Shown piece by piece: positions 6,806-18,283 of a stretch of DNA of 64,000 bases (positions within the stretch are counted from its first letter, which is position 1; the number at the start of each line of letters is the position of its first letter). The stretch covers positions 110,809 to 174,808 of the forward strand of contig JAIFWJ010000001.1 in assembly GCA_019661865.1 (NCBI GenBank), given 5' to 3'. The DNA is from Candidatus Parcubacteria bacterium. Lineage in GTDB: Bacteria > Patescibacteriota > Minisyncoccia > Phycocordibacterales > Zambryskibacteraceae. The position numbers were made by a program, and so were the translations under genes. The notes below the pieces were generated by a model that saw only the letters and a list, made by a program, of their open reading frames with translations, did not search any database and was not told the origin of the DNA.

Positions 6806-7633
6806 CTACTGAACCAGCGTCGCCCAGCCGTTCTTCACCTCGAGGTGAGGCTTAGTGCGACGTGTGAGAGACGTGGAACGGAGGATCTCTGCGCCCAGGG
6901 CCGATTTGGCCGCGGTGACGCTCTCGTAGACGGCGCAATGGACGATCATCCGCCCAGTTTTCATGTCATGGTGGACGATCTCCCTGCGTGTATTGTTGGG
7001 AGTGCTGATGTTGAGGACTACACCCAGGCCAGCGGTGCTAGCGAAGGTCAGACTGTCGGTGCGCGAGCAGCCGAGCTCGTAGAGCTCCACAGGGAAGACG
7101 AAACGCTGGGTCAAGTCTTCGACATGGATCTCCTCGGTGACACTGACACTTCCTGTACGGACCCGACGTTCATGGGAACGCAATGGAAGCATTGTGCCTG
7201 ACCGGTTATCCATACCCCCGTCGCTGAACATAACCCTGGCAGTGTCGTAGGACATTACACCACGGTGATGCTGCGGATCCATCGGCTGCCAGTCAGAGAG
7301 AAACGAGATACTCGTCCTTTCCTGGCTGGTTGGGTAGATCCACCTCGCGCCGTTGACGCCCATGCCGATCGTGGCCCTGGGTCCGTCTTGCTCGAGTATC
7401 GTGGAAAACTTGTTCTCTCCTGTGGATACCCAGTGAAGACCGAAGGATACTTCCTCGAGGTTGAGACTCGACACAACACCGAAGAACGGCATCGTGTTCG
7501 GATCGGCGGACGAGTCCATCGAGATCGAAATGATCGAGACGGAGTTCGGGGCGATCGCGCGAGGAGACGTTGCACCGTCGCTGCACGCGGCCATTAAGGC
7601 TACGAGGCAAAGACCGAGAACGGATCGAGACAT
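6806..7633 (-). CDS. Hypothetical lipoprotein, GC-rich stand-alone gene
   Basis: Signal peptide with lipobox LMAA-C; AGGAG SD; own promoter and terminator; visibly higher GC than neighbours. Confidence 0.75.
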   Translation of the reverse strand: MSRSVLGLCLVALMAACSDGATSPRAIAPNSVSIISISMDSSADPNTMPFFGVVSSLNLEEVSFGLHWVSTGENKFSTILEQDGPRATIGMGVNGARWIYPTSQERTSISFLSDWQPMDPQHHRGVMSYDTARVMFSDGGMDNRSGTMLPLRSHERRVRTGSVSVTEEIHVEDLTQRFVFPVELYELGCSRTDSLTFASTAGLGVVLNISTPNNTRREIVHHDMKTGRMIVHCAVYESVTAAKSALGAEILRSTSLTRRTKPHLEVKNGWATLVQ

Positions 7634-7707: not shown

Positions 7708-8562
7708 GCTTGTCTGATCAGTTAGGCTTGCCTGTGCAACCAGGGGGAAACTATGGCTTAGAACATAGTCAATTAACTGTTTTTCATCGTGTATTCTGTC
7801 TTCTGATCCTAGGGCTATGAAGACCACCGGGTGGATTCCATCTACGCTTGGGAGGCCTAACACTGTGAGTATTGTCTGGCGAGCTGCAGTTGTTTGTCCA
7901 TTCTTCCCACCTACAAAGTATGGGTTATCTATAAAGTTATTGAAGTCATGCAGGTCGAGCCAAGTTCCCTGCCCTCCCTTACCTGCTGTAATCTTAAATA
8001 TTTCTGGATGCTTTTCATAAATATATTTAGCAAGTGTGTAGAGATCTTCAGCGGTAGAGATGTTGTCCTGGGATATACCAGAAGGGTCGGCATAGCGTGT
8101 ACTATTCATCCCGAGTGAAAGTGCTTTTAGATACATTAGTTTTAAAAAATTTGTCCAACCGACAGAGTGAGTAAATATATTCGCAGCTTCATTCGAGGAT
8201 TCCATAAGCAGTGGATACAAGAGATTCCTGTATCTTACATCGTCACCTATCTTAAAGCGTGTCTTAGAAGTACTTACAAGATCGTCAGGATATACCACTG
8301 TTATGTCATCTAGGTTCACATTCTCGAGTGCTATCACTGCTGTCATGAGTTTCGTTATTGAAGCGATGGGAACTCTCTTAGTATCATCTTTATTCAAGTA
8401 CATTTCTCCAGTCTTTAGATCCTTAACCAGATATACGGGTGCAGAAAATGTGGAAGAGGTACTTAACTCAGCTTTTAACGGATATTTCGTAGCATGGAGA
8501 AATACACTATATAAGATTGTGAGGGCTATTATTGCGACTATGGCTCCAGTTACTTTACGCAT
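7696..8562 (-). CDS. D-alanyl-D-alanine carboxypeptidase/endopeptidase (peptidase S11)
   Basis: ASITKLMT, SSN, KNG motifs; N-terminal TM. Confidence 0.88.
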   Translation of the reverse strand: MRKVTGAIVAIIALTILYSVFLHATKYPLKAELSTSSTFSAPVYLVKDLKTGEMYLNKDDTKRVPIASITKLMTAVIALENVNLDDITVVYPDDLVSTSKTRFKIGDDVRYRNLLYPLLMESSNEAANIFTHSVGWTNFLKLMYLKALSLGMNSTRYADPSGISQDNISTAEDLYTLAKYIYEKHPEIFKITAGKGGQGTWLDLHDFNNFIDNPYFVGGKNGQTTAARQTILTVLGLPSVDGIHPVVFIALGSEDRIHDEKQLIDYVLSHSFPLVAQASLTDQTSLTR

Positions 8563-9857
8563 TATGGGTTCAAACGTTTAACGTCTCGAGGTAGGTATGT
8601 GGCTTCGCGGACATTGGGTAGGTCAAGGATCTTCATAATAAAGCGTCCAGGACCTATGCCTGCACCACCGTGTGGAGGGCAGCCGAAGCGGAAGAAGTTT
8701 AGGTAATCCTTGAGAGGTTCAAGGTCCATACCTTTCTCAAGGGCTTGGCTCTCTAGTATCTCTGGTCTGTGCTCACGCTTTGCGAGAGTTGTCACTTCCA
8801 CTCCGCGGAATATAAGGTCTGCACGTTGGGATCTGTCTGGATCTTCCTTTGTGCGCATATGGTAGAAGGCAGACTTGGACTTATGATAATCAGTTATAAA
8901 TACAAAGTCGTGATTATATTTCTCTTTTACATATTCAGAGATTGCTCGTTCTTCTTCGGGAGATAAATCATGCTCTTCTCCTGACTCGATCCCTCTCTCC
9001 CTCAAGATTTTCTTGGCTTCTACAATCTTCACCCGCGGGAATGGCTGAGTAGGTAGAGTGATATCAAGATCAGGGAAGGCAGCAAGTAGAGACTTGAATC
9101 CAGAAATGATCATCCCTTCTTCCATATCCATAACATCATGATGACTCTCTACGTAAGCCATTTCGAAATCCCAACCAGTAAACTCAGTCAGGTGTCTTGT
9201 AGTAAAGGAAGGTTCAGCGCGGAAAACCGGGCTCACCATAAAAACTCTTTCAAAGCCGGATGCAATACCCATCTGCTTGTAGAACTGTGGTGATTGAGCC
9301 AAGTACGCCTTACGGTCGAAATAGTCCACCGAGAAGACCTCTGCACCAGTCTCTGAAGGAGTGGACATAAATGCAGGTGGGTAAAGCTGTATGAAGCCGT
9401 TTTCATCCCAGAATTTTCTCCACCCTTTCTCGAACTCTGTCCAGACCTTGAAGATGCGAGCCTTCTCAGGTTTACGAAGGTCAAGCCATCGGTAGTCGAA
9501 GCGTAGTGGTGCCTCTGTCTCCTCTCCACCCTTCTTAGTAAACACTGGTATAGGAAGTTCGGGTGCTGCTTCAGAGATGATCTCGAGATTACTTACTTGT
9601 ATCTCTACTCCGCCGGGAGCATTCTTCTCTTCCTTCACCTGACCGGTCACTGAGACTACTGACTCGAGATGAATCTCTTTAGCCTTATCGAACATGCCAC
9701 TTTCGGGTAAGATCACAGTTTGTATAACGCCATGTATATCACGAAGGATTAAGAATATAACCTTGGACTGGATTCGGAGTGCATATACGAAGCCGCGGAC
9801 AGTTACCTCCTTGCCGGCGCACTCACAAACTTCCTTAGTATTAAAAGTTTTTTTCAT
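8562..9857 (-). CDS. aspS: Short (archaeal-type), probably non-discriminating aspartyl-tRNA synthetase
   Basis: 431 aa without GAD insert; LAQSPQFYKQ, FRAE, GCPPHGGAGIG, PRD; APGG loop as in non-discriminating enzymes. Confidence 0.9.
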   Translation of the reverse strand: MKKTFNTKEVCECAGKEVTVRGFVYALRIQSKVIFLILRDIHGVIQTVILPESGMFDKAKEIHLESVVSVTGQVKEEKNAPGGVEIQVSNLEIISEAAPELPIPVFTKKGGEETEAPLRFDYRWLDLRKPEKARIFKVWTEFEKGWRKFWDENGFIQLYPPAFMSTPSETGAEVFSVDYFDRKAYLAQSPQFYKQMGIASGFERVFMVSPVFRAEPSFTTRHLTEFTGWDFEMAYVESHHDVMDMEEGMIISGFKSLLAAFPDLDITLPTQPFPRVKIVEAKKILRERGIESGEEHDLSPEEERAISEYVKEKYNHDFVFITDYHKSKSAFYHMRTKEDPDRSQRADLIFRGVEVTTLAKREHRPEILESQALEKGMDLEPLKDYLNFFRFGCPPHGGAGIGPGRFIMKILDLPNVREATYLPRDVKRLNP

Positions 9858-10811
9858 CTACTCGTGATGTATTAGCCCAGTCCTCTTTCTTACTTCCATC
9901 ATCTTACTATGCACTACCTGGCGCATCTTGTGTCCTGCTTCTACCACAATATCTCGTACCTTATCTCCACTCTCTTCCCATTCCTTCCTTCTCTCGCGCA
10001 TTGGGCCGATAAATGATTTAAGATCCTGAATGAGCGCTTCCTTAAGGTCTTTGTACTTGCCCCTATTCTCCTCGTAGAGTTTATCTAAACTTTCTTTGTC
10101 TCGTATCAGTGAGTGTATGGCGTAGACATTTGTCGGTACTCCCGCACTTGAGTCTGTGACGATACTCATGACAGATTCTTCTATCTCTTTGTCTGTGGCG
10201 AAGAGTGGAATGATGTTCCCGTAACTCTTACTCATCTTCTGTCCATCGGTGCCAGGTACGGTGGCTACATCTTCCAGAATAAGGGGCTCAGGGAGCTTAA
10301 ATGTCTCGCCGAATAATCTATTAAACTTCTCTCCAGTATCTCTGGAAATCTCTAAGTGCTGTTTCTGATCCTTCCCTACTGGTACCACGTCTGCGTCATG
10401 TACCAGTATGTCCGCCGACATAAGAAGTGGGTAATTAAATACTCCTGCGTTTATCTCTTTGTTCTTTGTCTCTGCATCCTTAAAGGCATGGGCGCGTTCA
10501 AGATAAGGTACCGTAGTTATACATTCGAAGATCCATGCCAATTCTGTGACATGCGGCACATCAGACTGAAGGTAAATAGTGGCTCTCTTAGGGTCTAGAC
10601 CGATGCCTAAGTAATCGAGAACTAGATCTTTAGTATTCTTCTCAAGCTCGCTCTTGTCTGTGACAGAAGTAAGAGCGTGGAGGTTCGCTACGAAGATTCT
10701 AGAGTCATATTCATTTTGGAGATCTACGAACTGCTTAAGAGCTCCGAAGTAGTTACCCAAGTGCGGCCTTCCTGTCGGTTTAACCCCAGAAACTAGTATC
10801 TTCTTAGCCAT
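9858..10811 (-). CDS. trpS: Tryptophanyl-tRNA synthetase
   Basis: SGVKPTG, HLGN, YPLLMSADIL, VPVGKDQKQH, KMSKS. Confidence 0.96.
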   Translation of the reverse strand: MAKKILVSGVKPTGRPHLGNYFGALKQFVDLQNEYDSRIFVANLHALTSVTDKSELEKNTKDLVLDYLGIGLDPKRATIYLQSDVPHVTELAWIFECITTVPYLERAHAFKDAETKNKEINAGVFNYPLLMSADILVHDADVVPVGKDQKQHLEISRDTGEKFNRLFGETFKLPEPLILEDVATVPGTDGQKMSKSYGNIIPLFATDKEIEESVMSIVTDSSAGVPTNVYAIHSLIRDKESLDKLYEENRGKYKDLKEALIQDLKSFIGPMRERRKEWEESGDKVRDIVVEAGHKMRQVVHSKMMEVRKRTGLIHHE

Positions 10812-10866: not shown

Positions 10867-11373
10867 TTACAGCGGCTTGTCATCCGGCACAATTTGATAC
10901 TCGAATGGCCTTTCGAGTGAGGCCTTGCCCTTGGTGTAGTAGACGTCGCCTTTAATTCTCTGTCCTCTAAATAGCGGTGTCATCCACTCCCTATCTGCTG
11001 GCATCATCTCCTCAAATGGCAAAAACGCCCACGAGAACCAAGTGCCTGGCCCCATCTCATCTGTTTCGGCCAGTTCGCCATTCCACATGCCGTGGTTATC
11101 CTTGTAGCCGAAGAAGACGTGACACTTGAAGATACGCTCACCAGCCTCGAAGAAGTTGATTACAGCAACTCGCTTGAGCTGGTCACGCCTAAGCACTGCT
11201 CCTTGGGTTTCAGCTTTGAACTCGCGTATGGCTGTGTCGAGAATTGTTCTATCTCGCTTAATTCTCTTCCCTCCCCATCCGTTCCATAAACCTGCACCAA
11301 CCTTTCTTTTCTTTCTTGCGAGCCAAACCAAATCCCATTGTCGTGGTATGACAATCGTACATTGTACACACAT
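10867..11373 (-). CDS. Nudix hydrolase, MTH1/8-oxo-dGTPase-like, with degenerate Nudix box
   Basis: GAGLWNGWGGK...AIREFKAET, ETDEM-P-WF, M-PAD-W motifs. Confidence 0.8.
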   Translation of the reverse strand: MCVQCTIVIPRQWDLVWLARKKRKVGAGLWNGWGGKRIKRDRTILDTAIREFKAETQGAVLRRDQLKRVAVINFFEAGERIFKCHVFFGYKDNHGMWNGELAETDEMGPGTWFSWAFLPFEEMMPADREWMTPLFRGQRIKGDVYYTKGKASLERPFEYQIVPDDKPL

Positions 11374-11436: not shown

Positions 11437-13020
11437 CTAGCTTAATGCTAGTTCTAAGTAGAAAGTTGAGCCTTTTCCCTTCCCTTCTGACTCTGCCCAA
11501 ACCTTACCATTATGTGCTTCTATAACTGCCTTTACGAAAGAGAGCCCGTATCCAGTGCTATTCACATTAACCTTGAGAGAGTCTTTACCTCTTCCACCTT
11601 TAGTAAAGAGTCTTGGTTCATCCTCTGGATCTATACCTACTCCAGTATCTTTGATTGTGAGGAGTGCCTTACCATTATGCTTGTTTAAACTCACCTCCAC
11701 TCTTCCTTCTGGTGTATACGCTATGGAGTTTTCGACCAAGTTCCGCACAACTTCTTTAAGTTGCAGTTTATCTCCTCTAAGCTTGTATCCATCGTCCTCA
11801 GCATTAAATTTAAATTCTAGTCCTTTACTCTTAGCATTCTCACTTTGTGTCTTAATCACATCTTCAACTACGTTTCTAAAGTCTATATCTTCGAAGTTAT
11901 AAATCAGTATGCCACTCTCTGCACTCGATCCCTGAAGTACCTGTCGAACGAAGTCCACACCCTCTGTGAGAGACTTGAGACCTTCCTCAAGCATGGGCTT
12001 AGCTTCAGATTGAACAGCACCATAATCACCACTGAGAAGCTCGCTGAAGATACCTTTAGACTTTGAAAGGTACCCTTTAATCTGATGATTCATTATATGT
12101 ATAAGATTCGTCTGTCCCTCATTAGCAATTTGCAACTGTTCAGTCTGTTGTCTTTCATGAATAAGAGATCTAATTAGTTCAATACTTCCAATAAGAATTA
12201 CAATAAATGCTGTTATGTTTACTGCAACGGCACTAGTAGATTTCGAAAAGATAATATTTGCAAAACTAAAGGTAGTAACAAGAAAAGCGATGAATGTAGC
12301 CGCAGCAAGTTTTAGGTTAAACAGCTTATATTTATAGATAGAATAAGAGGTCAAACCGATAAATGGTAATAAGAATAAAGCTGCAAAAGGTATAAATCCG
12401 GTGTTATTAAATGTAACTGGTAAAACGACATTAAATAAAATAATTAAACACGCAGTTAAAAACATACCAAGGAATACAAATATTGCCTGTTTCTTTAAAA
12501 CACCTACTGCTCTGCTTGCCTTAATAGATAACATGGTTACAGCTGCAAAAAGAAGACCGAAGGCCACTATTCCAAATAAAGCAATTCCCGGTCCCCTTTC
12601 TGGGTTAGTGACCTGGCCGATAGGAGCAACATACATAACGCTGGGGAATACTAATGGGCTTAAAGTTAAAAGTGCAACCAAAATTACAGTTGGAACGATT
12701 ATATATCTATACCATCGTGGAAATTCTAAGTCCTGTTTAGGAAAAACATATGCCAGTTGAAAAAAAAGCAGAGCATGTAAAGAGGAAATAAAAAGATGAA
12801 GTCTTAAGGACCAAAGAATAAGATCGGGCGCGCGAAATTGATATTCAAAATAATTTGAAATACCCCAGATTGCAGTTAGTAATGAAAAAGCGAAAAAGGT
12901 TCTAGTTGTAATACTTTTCCTATCATTTAGGTAGACAATAACTCCTAGTAGGGCAATTGCCGCTGTTGCTATACCAACAGTTAAAAGATCAAAATTTATT
13001 AAAGTTGGATCTAAATTCAT
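11437..13020 (-). CDS. Membrane sensor histidine kinase with multi-TM (7TM-type) N-terminus
   Basis: About 9 hydrophobic helices; H-box MNHQIKGYL, N-box NLVENS, DTGVGI, GYGLSFVK, GKGSTF. Confidence 0.92.
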   Translation of the reverse strand: MNLDPTLINFDLLTVGIATAAIALLGVIVYLNDRKSITTRTFFAFSLLTAIWGISNYFEYQFRAPDLILWSLRLHLFISSLHALLFFQLAYVFPKQDLEFPRWYRYIIVPTVILVALLTLSPLVFPSVMYVAPIGQVTNPERGPGIALFGIVAFGLLFAAVTMLSIKASRAVGVLKKQAIFVFLGMFLTACLIILFNVVLPVTFNNTGFIPFAALFLLPFIGLTSYSIYKYKLFNLKLAAATFIAFLVTTFSFANIIFSKSTSAVAVNITAFIVILIGSIELIRSLIHERQQTEQLQIANEGQTNLIHIMNHQIKGYLSKSKGIFSELLSGDYGAVQSEAKPMLEEGLKSLTEGVDFVRQVLQGSSAESGILIYNFEDIDFRNVVEDVIKTQSENAKSKGLEFKFNAEDDGYKLRGDKLQLKEVVRNLVENSIAYTPEGRVEVSLNKHNGKALLTIKDTGVGIDPEDEPRLFTKGGRGKDSLKVNVNSTGYGLSFVKAVIEAHNGKVWAESEGKGKGSTFYLELALS

Positions 13021-14087
13021 TTAATTTCTGCTACTTCGTTTACATTAAACCTGCTCGAATGGGCGGAGGGAGAATCGGCATGTCCAACCCTGAACATAAA
13101 GGTGATAATTTCCTCGGGCTTAATTTTAAATGCCCTACCTATATTTTCATATGCTTCCTCAATCATTGCAATCTGCTTTGAAGAAAACTTCTCAGTATTT
13201 CCTGCTCTGATTTGATACATAAAAAACAATACTCCAGTTAAAGGCTGCAGACTTAATCCAAGTTTGGTTGAAGTAAGCCATAGTCTTTCTAAAATTCGAC
13301 CAACATTAACGAAGGTTTCTGGTGAGGTACTCTTTATTGTCAAACAACCAAAGGCTCCTGTCTTTGAATTTATCTCACCATTTTGTCTACCTACAGTTTT
13401 GTAGAAACCTATCTTATTTAGAACATTTATTACTGGCCAACTTTTAATTATTTTAAAAAAAATCTTTGCAGGAGAAGGAAGTTCTAAAGTCTCAATGTAA
13501 AATCCAATTTTTTTTCTAGCATCTTCTTCTTTTGTCCAATTTAAGTGGGTAAAAAAGAAATTATGTAAATGCTTATTACTGAACATTACTCTTTCATTTG
13601 TACTCCCAGCATGACCCAAAGTTTTCTTATTATTACTATCTATCGTCATATAAAAACCTATATCCTTGTTATTAAAAATGCCTTTTAGAATATCAATTTC
13701 ATGAGAACTCAGAGGGTCGGTTTTATAAGGTTTTCTATTAGTTGATCTCATACTAATATATTGAAAAAGAGAGTCTTTTTGTGGTGAGGCTGGAGTAAGT
13801 TTAATATGTGCTACATGATTTTTGTTTGTATCAGGAAAAGTATTAACTTCAGGGTTAAATCCAAAATGTTTAGCGGCTATAGTGATATTTTCAATTGCTG
13901 CTCCATTAGCCATATATGAGGCGCACTGTTCCCAGTTGTACAATGATCTGTCTCTATCAGGTAAGTTATATACATCAATCTCATTATCAGACACAATAAA
14001 TCTCCAAGGCTGGGCGTTCTCTCCAGATGGTGCTTTTGTTCCAGCCTCAATTATTTTTTTTATATTCTCATCCATTTTATAATCCAA
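13017..14087 (-). CDS. Nitroreductase-family flavoprotein (tandem-domain, Acg/MoeY C-terminal-like)
   Basis: APSGENAQPWRF, RSTNRKPY, GRILERLWLT-TKLGLSLQP, FRVG motifs. Confidence 0.85.
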   Translation of the reverse strand: MDYKMDENIKKIIEAGTKAPSGENAQPWRFIVSDNEIDVYNLPDRDRSLYNWEQCASYMANGAAIENITIAAKHFGFNPEVNTFPDTNKNHVAHIKLTPASPQKDSLFQYISMRSTNRKPYKTDPLSSHEIDILKGIFNNKDIGFYMTIDSNNKKTLGHAGSTNERVMFSNKHLHNFFFTHLNWTKEEDARKKIGFYIETLELPSPAKIFFKIIKSWPVINVLNKIGFYKTVGRQNGEINSKTGAFGCLTIKSTSPETFVNVGRILERLWLTSTKLGLSLQPLTGVLFFMYQIRAGNTEKFSSKQIAMIEEAYENIGRAFKIKPEEIITFMFRVGHADSPSAHSSRFNVNEVAEIK

Positions 14088-15258
14088 ACATTTTTCTAAA
14101 ATTTTCTGTAATTTCTGCTCTTCTAGAAACTTGATCTGAGTTGTGGTATGTAGGATCGAGCATGCTATCCATATTTACAAGAGATCTGTTCGATTCCAGT
14201 GGCTGATTATTTAGTACTTTTCTTACTCCATACGCTACAGCGGCTCCATTGAGTAGGGCTGCACCTCCTAATTGTGGCCAAGAGACGATTGTTTTTCCCG
14301 TCTCAAGTAAAGAGCCTTGCATTCTTTCAGTAACGTTCTCAGGGCCAACTAGTTGTGTGATAGTCTTTCCAATACCAAATTTGTCCAGATTTTTAAACAT
14401 TTCTAAAGTCACTTCTCCCAATCGGCCATGAAAGAAAGGTGTGTTTGGATCTATGTCATATCTTTCAATATCTACCACTCCATTATCACCATTATCAGCA
14501 GCTTGAAGCAGAGCGATTCCATGCTTTTTACATTGTTCGCGAATTAAATATTTTATTGGAAAGCTATCTAACTCATCGATCATAATGTCCAGACCGTCAA
14601 AAAACTTATCAATGTTATTTTCTTGAAGACCCTCTGGAAAAGTTTCAACTTCAGCATAAGGGTTTATTTGGTAAATTAACCTAGATGCCATATCAACCTT
14701 AAGAATTCCTAAATTTTCAGCTCCAGAAAGTATTCTATTAGTATTGGACAAGGCTAATTTATCCATATCAGCTAGCTTCATCCTTTTTGGCCCGCCCTGA
14801 AGTACTAGAGCGTAAGCAATGTTTGAGCCAACACTTAATCCGCCAATGCCAACTGTTGCGTTATAAAAATTCTTTTGTTCCTCTAAGTTTATGAGATTTC
14901 TATTGCGATTTGTTCGAACAAGCCAAAAGTCTTCTTCCGGGAGGATGTGAACCAGTGTGGAGTTCCAAGGGAAATAAACCCATTTGCCATGTTGCCAAGG
15001 AGGAGCTTCTTTTTTTAAACTTTCGAAGTATTTACTGAATTCCTCTTTATATGTGAGAGTATAAACTTGAGATGGGTTTTTAACTCCAAAAAGCTCAAGA
15101 TGTTGTTCCTCAAAATCATCAGATACATGTTGGATTCGCTTTTCAGATAACAATTTTTCAACCTTGTTCTGATCTGATTTATGTGAAAGATCAAAAATTA
15201 TAGGTTTCGAAATAACCTTATCATTTGAAATCGACTCTAGGGCTTTTTCTAAGCTCAT
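14077..15258 (-). CDS. ThiF-family adenylyltransferase (Rv1355c/MoeY N-terminal type)
   Basis: WVYFPW, RTNRNRNLI-EEQ, VGIGGLSVG, LADMD-L-LSN-NR, DELD, DIERYD, SWPQL. Confidence 0.88.
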   Translation of the reverse strand: MSLEKALESISNDKVISKPIIFDLSHKSDQNKVEKLLSEKRIQHVSDDFEEQHLELFGVKNPSQVYTLTYKEEFSKYFESLKKEAPPWQHGKWVYFPWNSTLVHILPEEDFWLVRTNRNRNLINLEEQKNFYNATVGIGGLSVGSNIAYALVLQGGPKRMKLADMDKLALSNTNRILSGAENLGILKVDMASRLIYQINPYAEVETFPEGLQENNIDKFFDGLDIMIDELDSFPIKYLIREQCKKHGIALLQAADNGDNGVVDIERYDIDPNTPFFHGRLGEVTLEMFKNLDKFGIGKTITQLVGPENVTERMQGSLLETGKTIVSWPQLGGAALLNGAAVAYGVRKVLNNQPLESNRSLVNMDSMLDPTYHNSDQVSRRAEITENFRKMFGL

Positions 15259-15312
15259 TTAAGTATTAAAAGTATAGCAAGGTGATGTTGTATAACAATG
15301 GAGATCTATCTA

Positions 15313-15340
15313 TTGACAATATGCAAATTTGGTGTATTAT
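15313..15340 (+). promoter_or_regulatory. Sigma70 promoter
   Basis: TTGACA-N16-TATTAT upstream of the 15376 ORF. Confidence 0.7.
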
Positions 15341-15375
15341 TATGTAAGTAACTGACCTTTCAATCGTGAGGAAAT

Positions 15376-15837
15376 ATGCTCAGAATCAATGCGATCTTCG
15401 TCTGCCCGACATTAGCGCTTCGCAATGCCTTGATAAAGGTTATCAGCGAAACTGGGGGTCCAACGCCTGTGCTAAGGAGCGACACTGTCTCGGCACAACG
15501 GGCACACTATCTACCAGTGGAATCTAGTACCATAATCAATCACCCAGAACCAATGATGGTCTCGGCTCTGGGCCAGCACTGTGCGTGTATTGCAATAGAG
15601 ACCGCTGATCGCTGGGCGGCAGCCGAAAAGGCTGCGGCCATTTTCAGATCAGAAGGTATTGAGGCTAGTGCACGTCATGATATTCAACCTGAATTCCCGA
15701 AAGGATTGCTGAGCTTCGTGGTGGTACCAGCACTCGAGGGAATTACACTGATGTACTGGCCCCGGCCAGAAGATCTAACACCGGATGTCATCGCGGCATT
15801 ACCGAGTCGTATTCCTTGGGAACGGCCTAGCGCTTAA
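15376..15837 (+). CDS. Hypothetical protein inside the AT-rich island
   Basis: 153-aa ORF with own promoter and GAGG SD; higher GC than flanks; stop shares TTAA with the convergent gene. Confidence 0.7.
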   Translation: MLRINAIFVCPTLALRNALIKVISETGGPTPVLRSDTVSAQRAHYLPVESSTIINHPEPMMVSALGQHCACIAIETADRWAAAEKAAAIFRSEGIEASARHDIQPEFPKGLLSFVVVPALEGITLMYWPRPEDLTPDVIAALPSRIPWERPSA

Positions 15838-17336
15838 TTGCGCTGGGCTGTTTTGTTTCTTACCCACTTCTGTTTAGTGCCGGGTTTAAAGTAAGTGGGA
15901 TGTTCATATGGCCAAAAGACTATTTGGGGGGTGATGCGATCTTTAATTGTTGCTGATAGATAATGATATTCTGTACTCTTCTCCATTAATGCATCAAACA
16001 CTGCGCTTGTGACAAGTTTTTTGATATTCGGATCCTGCTCAACTCCAGGTCTTAATTCTATATTTAGCTCTAAATACTCGTTCTGTTCATTGTTGTGTTC
16101 AGTAAATAGAGTAAATTTACCAGTTATGTAATCCTCTAAAACAGGATGCTCTAGTCCAGCCTTAACATATTCAGGATAAATTATTGCACCATATAACTTA
16201 GTGGAAAGATCAGTTCTCTCGTAGATATACACAAATGGAAGTTCAGTTATGGTTTTTCTTATACCGGCTTTCTGAATTTCTTTCTCGAGATCGTAACCAT
16301 TTTGCTTAAAAATTGCCTTTATATCATCGAATGTATGTACTCCACCATTGTCCCCTATCTCATATCTGACAAGAGGTAATGCGCTCATCCCACTGACTAG
16401 AATTTTTTTGTTCTGTGATTCAAAGTTTGTAAAATCAGGGTTAAATTGAGCCAGAGTTGGAAGTCGGGTCGCATCTATGAAGAGATCTTTGTAAAGTTTT
16501 TTATTTTTAAGTGCAATCCTTCTAATTAAAATAGATAGTGGGGTCTCTTCTGCCATAGTTCCCAAATCTGCGCTACCGTATATATTCATTGTATCCCTAT
16601 AAATATTTTTGATGCCAGTCTTCTTGGCTATGTAATCTCGAAATTTCTCGGAGAAAGCTTCCGCAGCAAACACAACTTTTAAATCAAAATCTTTCCAATT
16701 GACTTCATTATTTTTTCCTTCGTCTATTACATCTTTGAGAAATGGTGGGTAACCACAAAGAATGACTTGATCAAATTTTGGAGCAATATTTCTCATTGCT
16801 TCAAAAATTTCTTTTTTATTTACACCTGGAGTAAGGATAGAGAATGGATAGCCAGCATCAGATAGATATCTAAATGCCTGATATGTGATAACTCCACCAA
16901 TCCAAACACCCATTCCGAAGCCAACAATTACTAATGTAGATTTATCTTTTTTAAGCCCGCTCGATTTAATAAATAATTCATGTAAGACTGCAGATTGAAA
17001 ATCCACGTCCTTGCTTCTTGGGAAATAGAACGGTGCACCAGTAGATCCAGAGGTGCTTGTAAAAACCATTGGTTGAGACAGTGTACCTTTGAGACAAAGA
17101 TCCTGAAGCTGGTTTCCTTTTAAATATTCAGATCGAGTAACAGAAGGAAGGTTTTTGAAATCATCAAAATTTCTGATCTTTTTTGGATCAATTCCTTTTT
17201 TGGTCAGAAAATCTTTATAGGCGGGCACCTGCTTGGAACACAGGTTGAAGAGCTCAAGTAGTTTTTTTTCGCTCTCTTTTTTCCAATAATTGCTTTTCTT
17301 ACTTTTTATCGAATTTATTACCTTTCCAGAGTTCAT
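15834..17336 (-). CDS. Phenylacetate-CoA ligase-like (PaaK/F390 synthetase family) ANL adenylate-forming enzyme
   Basis: VPAY, TSGSTG-P P-loop, YGSAD, PLVRYEIGD, ERTD, IYPE motifs. Confidence 0.85.
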   Translation of the reverse strand: MNSGKVINSIKSKKSNYWKKESEKKLLELFNLCSKQVPAYKDFLTKKGIDPKKIRNFDDFKNLPSVTRSEYLKGNQLQDLCLKGTLSQPMVFTSTSGSTGAPFYFPRSKDVDFQSAVLHELFIKSSGLKKDKSTLVIVGFGMGVWIGGVITYQAFRYLSDAGYPFSILTPGVNKKEIFEAMRNIAPKFDQVILCGYPPFLKDVIDEGKNNEVNWKDFDLKVVFAAEAFSEKFRDYIAKKTGIKNIYRDTMNIYGSADLGTMAEETPLSILIRRIALKNKKLYKDLFIDATRLPTLAQFNPDFTNFESQNKKILVSGMSALPLVRYEIGDNGGVHTFDDIKAIFKQNGYDLEKEIQKAGIRKTITELPFVYIYERTDLSTKLYGAIIYPEYVKAGLEHPVLEDYITGKFTLFTEHNNEQNEYLELNIELRPGVEQDPNIKKLVTSAVFDALMEKSTEYHYLSATIKDRITPQIVFWPYEHPTYFKPGTKQKWVRNKTAQRN

Positions 17337-17416: not shown

Positions 17417-18283
17417 TTAAAACCCTTGGCTTTTGAGCTCCTCGACCGCTTTTTTAGCCTCTCGGGAGAGTTTTTCTGGGAGTTTTACAGTGATGCGGAC
17501 ATATAAGTCCCCTCTCCTGTCCTTGGCACTGCCAGAGAATGGCACACCCTTATTCTTAACGCGTAAGATGGTGCCAGAGTTCGTGCCCTGGGGGACTCTA
17601 AGGAGTATTTCCCCATCGAGGGTAGCAATGTGCTTCTCTACCCCGAGGAGAGCCTCAGAGAGCTTCAGAGTCATATCCATGATGAGGTTGTATCCCTCTT
17701 TTCTGAAGGTTGGATGGCGGCGAACATGTACCTTTATAAAGAGGTCTCCAGGCATACCACCCTCTATAGTCTCACCCATGCCGCTCATACGGATCATCTG
17801 ACCATCATCTATACCCGGCGGCACTTGAATCTTCACTTCCTTCTGCTTCACAAGGCGACTATTTATAACTACCTTGCGCTCTGTGCCGAATATGGATTCT
17901 TGAAATGAGAGCTCAATGTCTACGGCAATATCTCTACCACGACGCACACGTTTTCCGCCGAATATAGATGAGAGTATGTCGCTCAGATCTCCGGGGTCGA
18001 AGCCCTGGCCCGAGAAGTTTGAGAAGTCGAAGCCGAAGTCCGATGGATTGAACCCGCCTTGGAACCCACTGTTTGCATCTGCTGAGCCGAAGGTGTCATA
18101 CTGCTGCCTCTTCTTTTTGTCTCCTAATACTGAGTAGGCCTCATTGACCTCCTTGAACTTAGCTTCGTTCCCAGTCTTCTTGTCTGGGTGATACTCGTGA
18201 GCAAGCTTTCTGAAAGCTTTTTTTATATCGTCCTCACTTGCCCCTTTAGGAACTCCTAGAATTTTGTAATAATCTTTCGCCAT
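17417..18283 (-). CDS. dnaJ: DnaJ chaperone (no zinc-finger region)
   Basis: KDYY-ILGV, HPD, G/F-rich linker, GDL C-terminal repeats; next to dnaK. Confidence 0.92.

Follow-up and report, generated by a model that had tools for sequence, protein, structure and literature searches.

Oxazolone-forming systems have been described as TrzAS (Rv1356c/Rv1355c), OxzAB and TyzACB, which have in common a cyclase resembling ThiF along with an Acg-like flavin oxidase of the Rv1355c family and which use an acyl-coenzyme A (CoA) acyltransferase (PMC12856293; bioRxiv 10.1101/2020.06.11.147165; PMC10404671). Rv1355c, i.e., TrzS, is reported to cyclise N-acyl-tryptophan with ATP and to desaturate it with oxygen (PMC12856293), and a split form of the synthetase is already known as TyzB/TyzC (PMC10404671). 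The role of N-acyl oxazolones is stated as unclear (PMC12856293; bioRxiv 10.1101/2020.06.11.147165); the words "kinase" and "ligase" are absent from the main text of the TrzS paper, as is "kinase" from the text of the OxzB preprint. The locus analysed here is located in a 64,000-nucleotide stretch, referred to as the window, of a Candidatus Parcubacteria genome (assembly GCA_019661865.1, contig JAIFWJ010000001.1, positions 110,809–174,808). It contains a split ThiF/nitroreductase pair of this family together with a PaaK-family adenylating ligase instead of the acyltransferase, and a dedicated, linked histidine kinase with a seven-transmembrane (7TM) sensor. In a comparison with relatives, the enzyme set and the sensor half of the kinase were found to co-vary at the sequence level, whereas the kinase core tracked the host family.

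In staphylococcal agr groups, a synthase is encoded upstream of a kinase with a variable sensor. The comQXP pherotypes of Bacillus have the synthase directly upstream of the membrane kinase ComP, whose N-terminal domain varies with the synthase and whose cytoplasmic domain is conserved according to the text of PMC4008528, and the present locus is organized likewise. Unlike comQXP and agr, it lacks both a precursor peptide and a DNA-binding regulator next to the kinase, and the cassettes found across the class represent unrelated small-molecule chemistries and not alleles of one peptide system. By analogy, the cassette would work like comQXP without being a member of the comQXP or agr systems. 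It consists of the following features:

15834–17336, minus strand: PaaK-family adenylating ligase, 500 aa (TIGR02155 match, structure model, conserved motifs)
15376–15837, plus strand: inserted open reading frame (ORF), 153 aa (GC 52%, one 61%-identical homologue)
14077–15258, minus strand: ThiF-like cyclodehydratase, 393 aa, matching the N-terminal half of the TrzS/Rv1355c family (PRK07877)
13017–14075, minus strand: Acg-like flavin-dependent oxidase with nitroreductase fold, 352 aa, matching the C-terminal half of the TrzS/Rv1355c family (PRK07877, PRK14851)
11437–13020, minus strand: kinase, 527 aa in full (7TM sensor half and catalytic half)
12150–13020, minus strand: kinase sensor half, HisKA_7TM and two further helices (PF16927)
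11437–12149, minus strand: kinase catalytic half, His312 and HATPase (PF02518)

Sensor and core were compared separately for 83 kinases. To the non-cassette kinase of G308, a genome of the same genus, the window kinase showed 58% identity in the core, the highest value among 82, and a sensor identity of 17%; its best sensor matches were all cassette kinases. The two cores were sisters (support 98), and the identity crossover was located near kinase residues 271–300 (window ~12120–12210). To regard the whole kinase as belonging to an acquired island would be too simple: the sensor half alone groups with the cassette, and the catalytic half is nearest to the resident same-genus kinase. Pairs from the same family with different cassettes averaged 22% identity in the sensor and 56% in the core, and pairs from different families with the same cassette 32% and 41%, against a background of 21% and 42%. 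The nearest sensor outside the own family shared the enzyme type in 66 of 72 cases (19 of 72 for the core), and the nearest core among other types came from the same family in 33 of 40 (2 of 40 for the sensor). Quick tree reconstructions required one change for the 41 cassette sensors (Shimodaira–Hasegawa-like approximate likelihood ratio test, SH-aLRT, 99) and 23 for the cores, with controls that were chosen by profile score, which favours separation of the cassette sensors. Sensors linked to UbiA and FabH formed groups of their own; the reductase, FeeM and methyltransferase types grouped less cleanly (L147 was labelled by score alone, and L124 was loosely placed with FeeM). A set reduced to a single row for each combination of family and type (58 rows, without L147 and two second copies) placed all 24 cassette sensors on one side of a branch (99.9), and the cores were rejected as a group (approximately unbiased test, p-AU 1e-29). 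With one genome per family, oxidase identity correlated with sensor identity (rho 0.46, p 0.002) and not with the core (0.04), and the same was found for ThiF identity (rho 0.19, p 0.012; core 0.02); ligase identity correlated with neither. It is therefore likely that relatives swap whole chemical "languages" at one genomic spot. The cassette is real and conserved, and the exchange between sensor and core adds to what was predicted originally; no paper on either was found in the literature searched, which left most subscription journals outside.

Profile and structure searches agreed with the original domain assignments of all four genes. The ThiF-like protein matched PRK07877, the profile of the Rv1355c family, at positions 5–349 with 322 bits, including the N-terminal extension typical of that family, and the nitroreductase matched the same profile at positions 376–720 (187 bits) and PRK14851 with 215 bits. 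The PRK07877 cut-off of 476 applies to the fused protein, so that each split half alone scores below it; a fused ThiF-oxidase homologue with the same sensor type (genome G202, locus L064) reached 792 bits. The oxidase also matched the Acg structure 2ymv (E 2e-7). Residues G140, D164, N172, R175, K187 and D231 of ThiF were invariant in a 42-row alignment, and its core residues matched those of nine fused Rv1355c-family homologues column for column; R110 and R114 of the oxidase were invariant in 38 rows (numbers +1). By a constant offset in the 714-aa fused homologue P0146, an indirect mapping, D231 would correspond to the ATP-binding D217 of TrzS, and oxidase Q277 to TrzS Q651. The TcdA, MoeB and ThiF profiles gave 43–68 bits, all far under their cut-offs. 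Since the protein contains a single Cys, it has no CxxC zinc motifs, the hallmark of ThiF/MoeB. An identity as a TcdA, MoeB or ThiF enzyme was ruled out by these profile scores and the lack of Cys motifs, and the protein belongs with the oxazolone synthetases (322 bits, compared to 43–63 for TcdA/MoeB), as had been suspected. Judged from these comparisons, the TrzS/Rv1355c family of oxazolone synthetases is represented here by its two halves, ThiF and the oxidase. The two domains are indeed separate proteins here, but this is not a novelty, since TyzB/TyzC of TyzACB is split in the same way (PMC10404671). In genome G023, ThiF (L040:4968-6172) was found in two ORFs of 187 and 217 aa, pointing to a frameshift or an assembly error.

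The ligase matched TIGR02155 with E 4e-12 and 45 bits, compared to a cut-off of 646. Its structure model (predicted local distance difference test, pLDDT, 90) matched PaaK1, followed by NatL2, AjiA1 and ClxA, and the motifs S96-G97-S98-x-G100, Y253-G254, R324-x-x-x-x-D329, R374-x-D376 and K488 were conserved among 36 homologues. A function as the phenylacetate-CoA ligase PaaK was rejected on the bit score and because CoaE was not found, which leaves a shared fold family only; neither CoaE nor acyl-carrier domains were found in the 97%-complete genome. NatL2, AjiA1 and ClxA belong to the same fold family (14–15% identity to the ligase) and link an ATP-activated acid directly to a second building block, ClxA and NatL2 as an amide or ester; their pathways are described as closing a benzoxazole with an amidohydrolase and not with ThiF and oxidase (PMC9400959). 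The window ligase is likely to be a CoA-independent amide ligase. It falls within an 18-row group in which 11 members have a dehydrogenase or aminotransferase at the locus, so that its substrate may be a 2-oxo acid or an amino acid. Within the plasmid set, the ligase had its closest relative in Nonomuraea (34% identity), and no ThiF or oxidase was seen beside it among ORFs of at least 200 aa inspected by eye. Divergent ligases of the same family adjoin sensor-only 7TM proteins in L080 (G245; 344 aa) and L081 (G137; cut by the contig end), and L080 also contains two generic ThiF genes and no oxidase match.

The survey of the neighbourhood covered 401 genomes of the class, in which 41 ThiF loci were read for neighbours. 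ThiF matches were present in 52 genomes; all four genes occurred together, in shuffled order, in 24 of the 41 loci, in line with the co-occurrence expected originally, and the 7TM kinase was present in 33, with most of the other eight running into contig edges. The ligase was found in 37 genomes, 34 of which were ThiF-positive (one by a generic ThiF match only). A further protein, X, was found in eight genomes, all ThiF-positive and none ligase-positive, using a profile built from five of them, so that three of the eight are independent of the profile. Besides, after leaving out six weak core-only ThiF matches, 46 ThiF genomes divided into 33 with ligase, eight with X and five with neither, with ThiF near a contig end in all five. 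Protein X showed no Pfam, meaningful NCBIfam or PDB-sequence match, and its GNAT/FeeM-like label comes from Atlas alone (feature scores 0.91–0.92, TM ~0.5). With X as a GNAT-like partner, these eight genomes show the canonical oxazolone layout. In the host genome the X profile had no match, and FeeM-like and X queries had no tblastn match; an adjacent acyl-CoA:amino-acid N-acyltransferase is absent at the locus, where the ligase occupies its place. Since ligase and X never occur together and nearly always occur with ThiF, the ligase likely stands in for the acyltransferase; this mutual exclusion agrees with the substitution of the acyl-supplying step that had been proposed. Accessory genes at the cassette loci included amino-acid dehydrogenases (11), 4-methylideneimidazole-5-one (MIO) lyases (five), aminotransferases (three) and M19 amidohydrolases (two).

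The kinase is a class I histidine kinase with HisKA_7TM: the 7TM domain (PF16927, E 4e-12), the HATPase domain with its boxes (PF02518, E 2e-24) and the phospho-accepting His312, which aligns with the H-box His of other kinases, were all found. GC at third codon positions was 0.23 in the sensor half and 0.36 in the catalytic half. The sensor model (pLDDT 89) aligned to the 7TM bundle of a G protein-coupled receptor (GPCR) over 216 residues (Z 16.1, root-mean-square deviation 3.1), although helical bundles score high easily and a shared fold indicates no function. Foldseek gave no match of the sensor under E 0.001, and a wide structure search gave no bacterial structure in the top 50.

A profile built from 28 cassette sensors matched 245 of the 401 genomes, by which a cassette-specific kinase was ruled out. 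The gene for the 7TM kinase is thus resident throughout the class, and genes for other small-molecule enzymes usually precede it. This was seen in loci of non-cassette kinases, which were 38 of ~200 lower-scoring matches, taken from the top of the list and from longer contigs, plus the one from G308. Many of these kinases sit just before aspS, and a small-molecule enzyme was located just upstream in 30 of the 39 loci: acyl-ACP-reductase/PigE-like (16), UbiA (four), methyltransferase (three), FeeM-like (three), FabH-like (two), CqsA/BioF-like (one) and fatty-acyl-reductase-like (one). Neither this class-wide family of chimeric kinases, nor the other enzyme sets in the same slot, nor the gene inserted into the cassette had been recognized originally. 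CqsA-, LuxI- and PpyS-like genes have been reported beside sensory kinases of the candidate phyla radiation, the group to which the present genomes also belong, as predicted synthase-kinase pairs by Bernard et al. 2020 (PMC7567580), and the enzymes that precede 7TM kinases here are of comparable types; the main text of that paper mentions no ThiF, nitroreductase, oxazolone, 7TM or recombination, and its Table S4 may list some of the same kinases.

Regarding individual loci, the acyl-ACP-reductase/PigE-N-like gene (16 loci within L097-L129, e.g. L113:6476-7630) is the commonest partner of the non-cassette kinases and is usually accompanied by a PlsC-like acyltransferase; these loci are candidates for signalling by fatty aldehydes, in bacteria for which fatty-acid synthesis is not expected. 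In L133:3839-5086, a CqsA/BioF-like pyridoxal phosphate enzyme is located directly upstream of the 7TM kinase, followed by a receiver, in a layout resembling cqsA-cqsS. In L034, L120, L127, L122 and L123, one slot contains 7TM kinases or sensors in tandem whose sensor halves differ and which possibly listen to more than one ligand.

A single receiver match was found in the genome, a 129-aa single-domain protein encoded between pilB and pilT on contig C9. The original statement that no response regulator is present in the window was thus correct, since the only receiver lies on another contig. The kinase was the only histidine kinase; the second HATPase match, a 699-aa protein, reads as GyrB. 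In eight cassette loci a receiver follows the kinase. Since the sole receiver lies between pilB and pilT, the output of the kinase is likely pilus control. A receiver joined to an ATPase of the PilB type is encoded at L067:2072-3820, two genes downstream from the cassette kinase of that locus.

On balance we consider the following chain of steps probable. The ligase would take up a carboxylic acid obtained by scavenging and, with ATP and without CoA, couple it to an amino acid; ThiF would cyclise the resulting amide to an oxazolone, which the flavoenzyme would desaturate to a dehydro-oxazolone. The co-travelling 7TM sensor would bind the product and control the only histidine kinase of the genome, from which phosphate would pass to the sole receiver, whose gene lies between those of the pilus motors, pilB and pilT. 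Together, the enzymes and the sensor half would make up a cassette that sets specificity and can be exchanged, by recombination onto the resident kinase core in a comQXP-like manner. As a more tentative extension, which may well not hold in full, the kinase would be the one conserved signalling socket of Parcubacteria-type Patescibacteria, in which cassettes of synthase and GPCR-like 7TM sensor with chemistries as different as those of oxazolones, fatty aldehydes, prenylated compounds, N-acyl amino acids, and hydroxyketone- and pyrone-like compounds are swapped onto a resident core to steer type IV pilus motors in minimal genomes, where these motors would serve to find or leave hosts.

Several observations weigh against the oxazolone-signal chain. 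A constraint that kept the sensors of the window and of G308 together was not rejected (p-AU 0.41, long branch), and physical linkage alone can yield some co-phylogeny. Ligase identity was uncorrelated with that of the sensor (rho -0.07) or ThiF (0.12, p 0.15), the inserted convergent gene parts the ligase from the remaining cassette, and the search of the host genome for an amino-acid dehydrogenase, aminotransferase or lyase gave none. By the P0146 offset, which is indirect, R540 of TrzS would correspond to M164 in a variable column, with R162 two residues away. As to the output, relatives carry 1–14 receivers (positive in 34 of 34), receivers are also present in 17 of 20 genomes in which no sensor was detected, and receivers linked to pilus ATPases were found in seven of 20 loci without a detected kinase, compared to nine of 30 in the other set. 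The pilus link is therefore one of elimination in this genome.

The sensor could instead detect a substrate, i.e., an acid or a derivative of an amino acid that comes from a host or the community, from which the enzymes make an effector, a storage form or a detoxified product. Such cue sensing would suit the failure to find precursor-making accessory enzymes in the genome, which implies substrates from outside, as well as the description of Patescibacteria as predicted symbionts, and co-evolution of sensor and enzymes would be expected for a common substrate just as for a product. However, the only receiver has no DNA-binding domain, so that the usual route by which a kinase induces enzymes is closed, the slot also holds homologues of known autoinducer synthases (CqsA/BioF-like, FeeM/LuxI-like and FabH-like), and sensor identity tracks the last enzyme, the oxidase, and not the ligase; we regard this explanation as unlikely. 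Rather improbable is a signal other than an oxazolone, for example a 2-oxo-acyl or aryl amide closed to another heterocycle or an uncyclised dehydro-amide. The replacement of the acyltransferase by the ligase, the dehydrogenases, MIO lyases, aminotransferases and M19 amidohydrolases at the loci, the benzoxazoles made elsewhere by a ligase and an amidohydrolase (PMC9400959), the apparent change at the R540 position and the scores of both split halves under the family cut-off would agree with it, but the column-for-column match of ThiF to fused Rv1355c-family proteins and the occurrence of the same ThiF/oxidase/sensor set with a GNAT-like protein, the canonical oxazolone layout, argue for an oxazolone.

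A third explanation needs no functional pairing: if the slot is a recombination hot spot, an exchange within the kinase core would drag the upstream genes and the sensor along. The slot from dnaJ to trpS/aspS is very variable, and an unrelated gene has been inserted into the cassette here. However, a single lineage of sensors accompanies the cassette in 24 families despite varying gene order, and the gene directly adjoining the kinase varies (among 40, nitroreductase 20, ThiF six, methyltransferase three and ligase two). Moreover, 41 of the 44 genomes with a sensor score of at least 200 bits were ThiF-positive (15 of 18 among those outside the profile), and separate sensor groups exist for the UbiA and FabH types as well. 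We therefore give this explanation little credence. If the product of the pathway is indeed what the sensor binds, the cassette would include the first cognate receptor for N-acyl oxazolones, ligands would be assigned to the HisKA_7TM domain, and genomes of ~0.6 Mb would be seen to maintain communication that is chemically diverse and open to exchange. The pairs of synthase and sensor provide a ready list of testable ligand-receptor pairs, and with one kinase and one receiver in the genome, the output is directly testable.

The host genome comprises 598,658 bp, and close homologues carry the source names Parcubacteria, Patescibacteria or Kaiserbacteria, which together with this size marks the host as a Parcubacteria-type organism. 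The block was AT-rich as described originally, with 33–38% GC compared to ~44% for the window, and 12.2–14.2 kb has the lowest GC among 1166 2-kb windows of the genome. Ligase, ThiF, nitroreductase and kinase are four minus-strand ORFs, but they do not form the uninterrupted co-oriented row that had been described, since the opposite-strand ORF at 15376–15837 lies between ligase and ThiF. Likewise, only one of two predicted overlaps was seen directly in the sequence, the ATGA at 13017–13020 shared by nitroreductase and kinase; the nitroreductase ORF overlaps ThiF only when extended to 14087 from a TTG start, and is 1 nt apart from it with the ATG start (13017–14075). The inserted ORF had no Pfam or NCBIfam match, was absent from the 41 cassette loci surveyed and is probably unrelated to the pathway; a relationship to the small proteins in cassettes L044 and L047 was rejected, as no alignment was obtained. 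A TTGACA-16-TATTAT sequence is present at 15313–15340, though promoter scans overall gave 13 sites compared to 18.6 in shuffles and terminator scans five compared to 4.7, neither being evidence for such signals. Repeats or insertion scars flanking the block were searched for and discarded, as only short matches at chance level were found. The slot is flanked by:

17417–18283, minus strand: dnaJ, upstream flank of the variable slot (same position in G308; near the kinase in several other genomes)
10867–11373: NUDIX gene, between kinase and trpS
9858–10811, minus strand: trpS, downstream flank, then aspS (trpS directly after the kinase in G308; aspS after the kinase in many genomes of the class)

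In G308 the kinase, with a very divergent sensor, occupies the same dnaJ-trpS slot with different upstream genes, i.e., a 125-aa Cys-rich membrane-anchored protein, a 267-aa protein without family match and an EamA transporter (L140:9264-11914). A GC-rich (~52%) ORF at window 6806–7633 has a lipoprotein-like N-terminus and no Pfam match, and a different lipoprotein-like ORF (L140:4637-5089) is present near the same place in G308. The window aspS (8562–9857, 431 aa) looks shorter and of a different type compared to the 470-aa aspS of G308 (L140:5173-6585), which has the same strand and position, suggesting a possible gene replacement.

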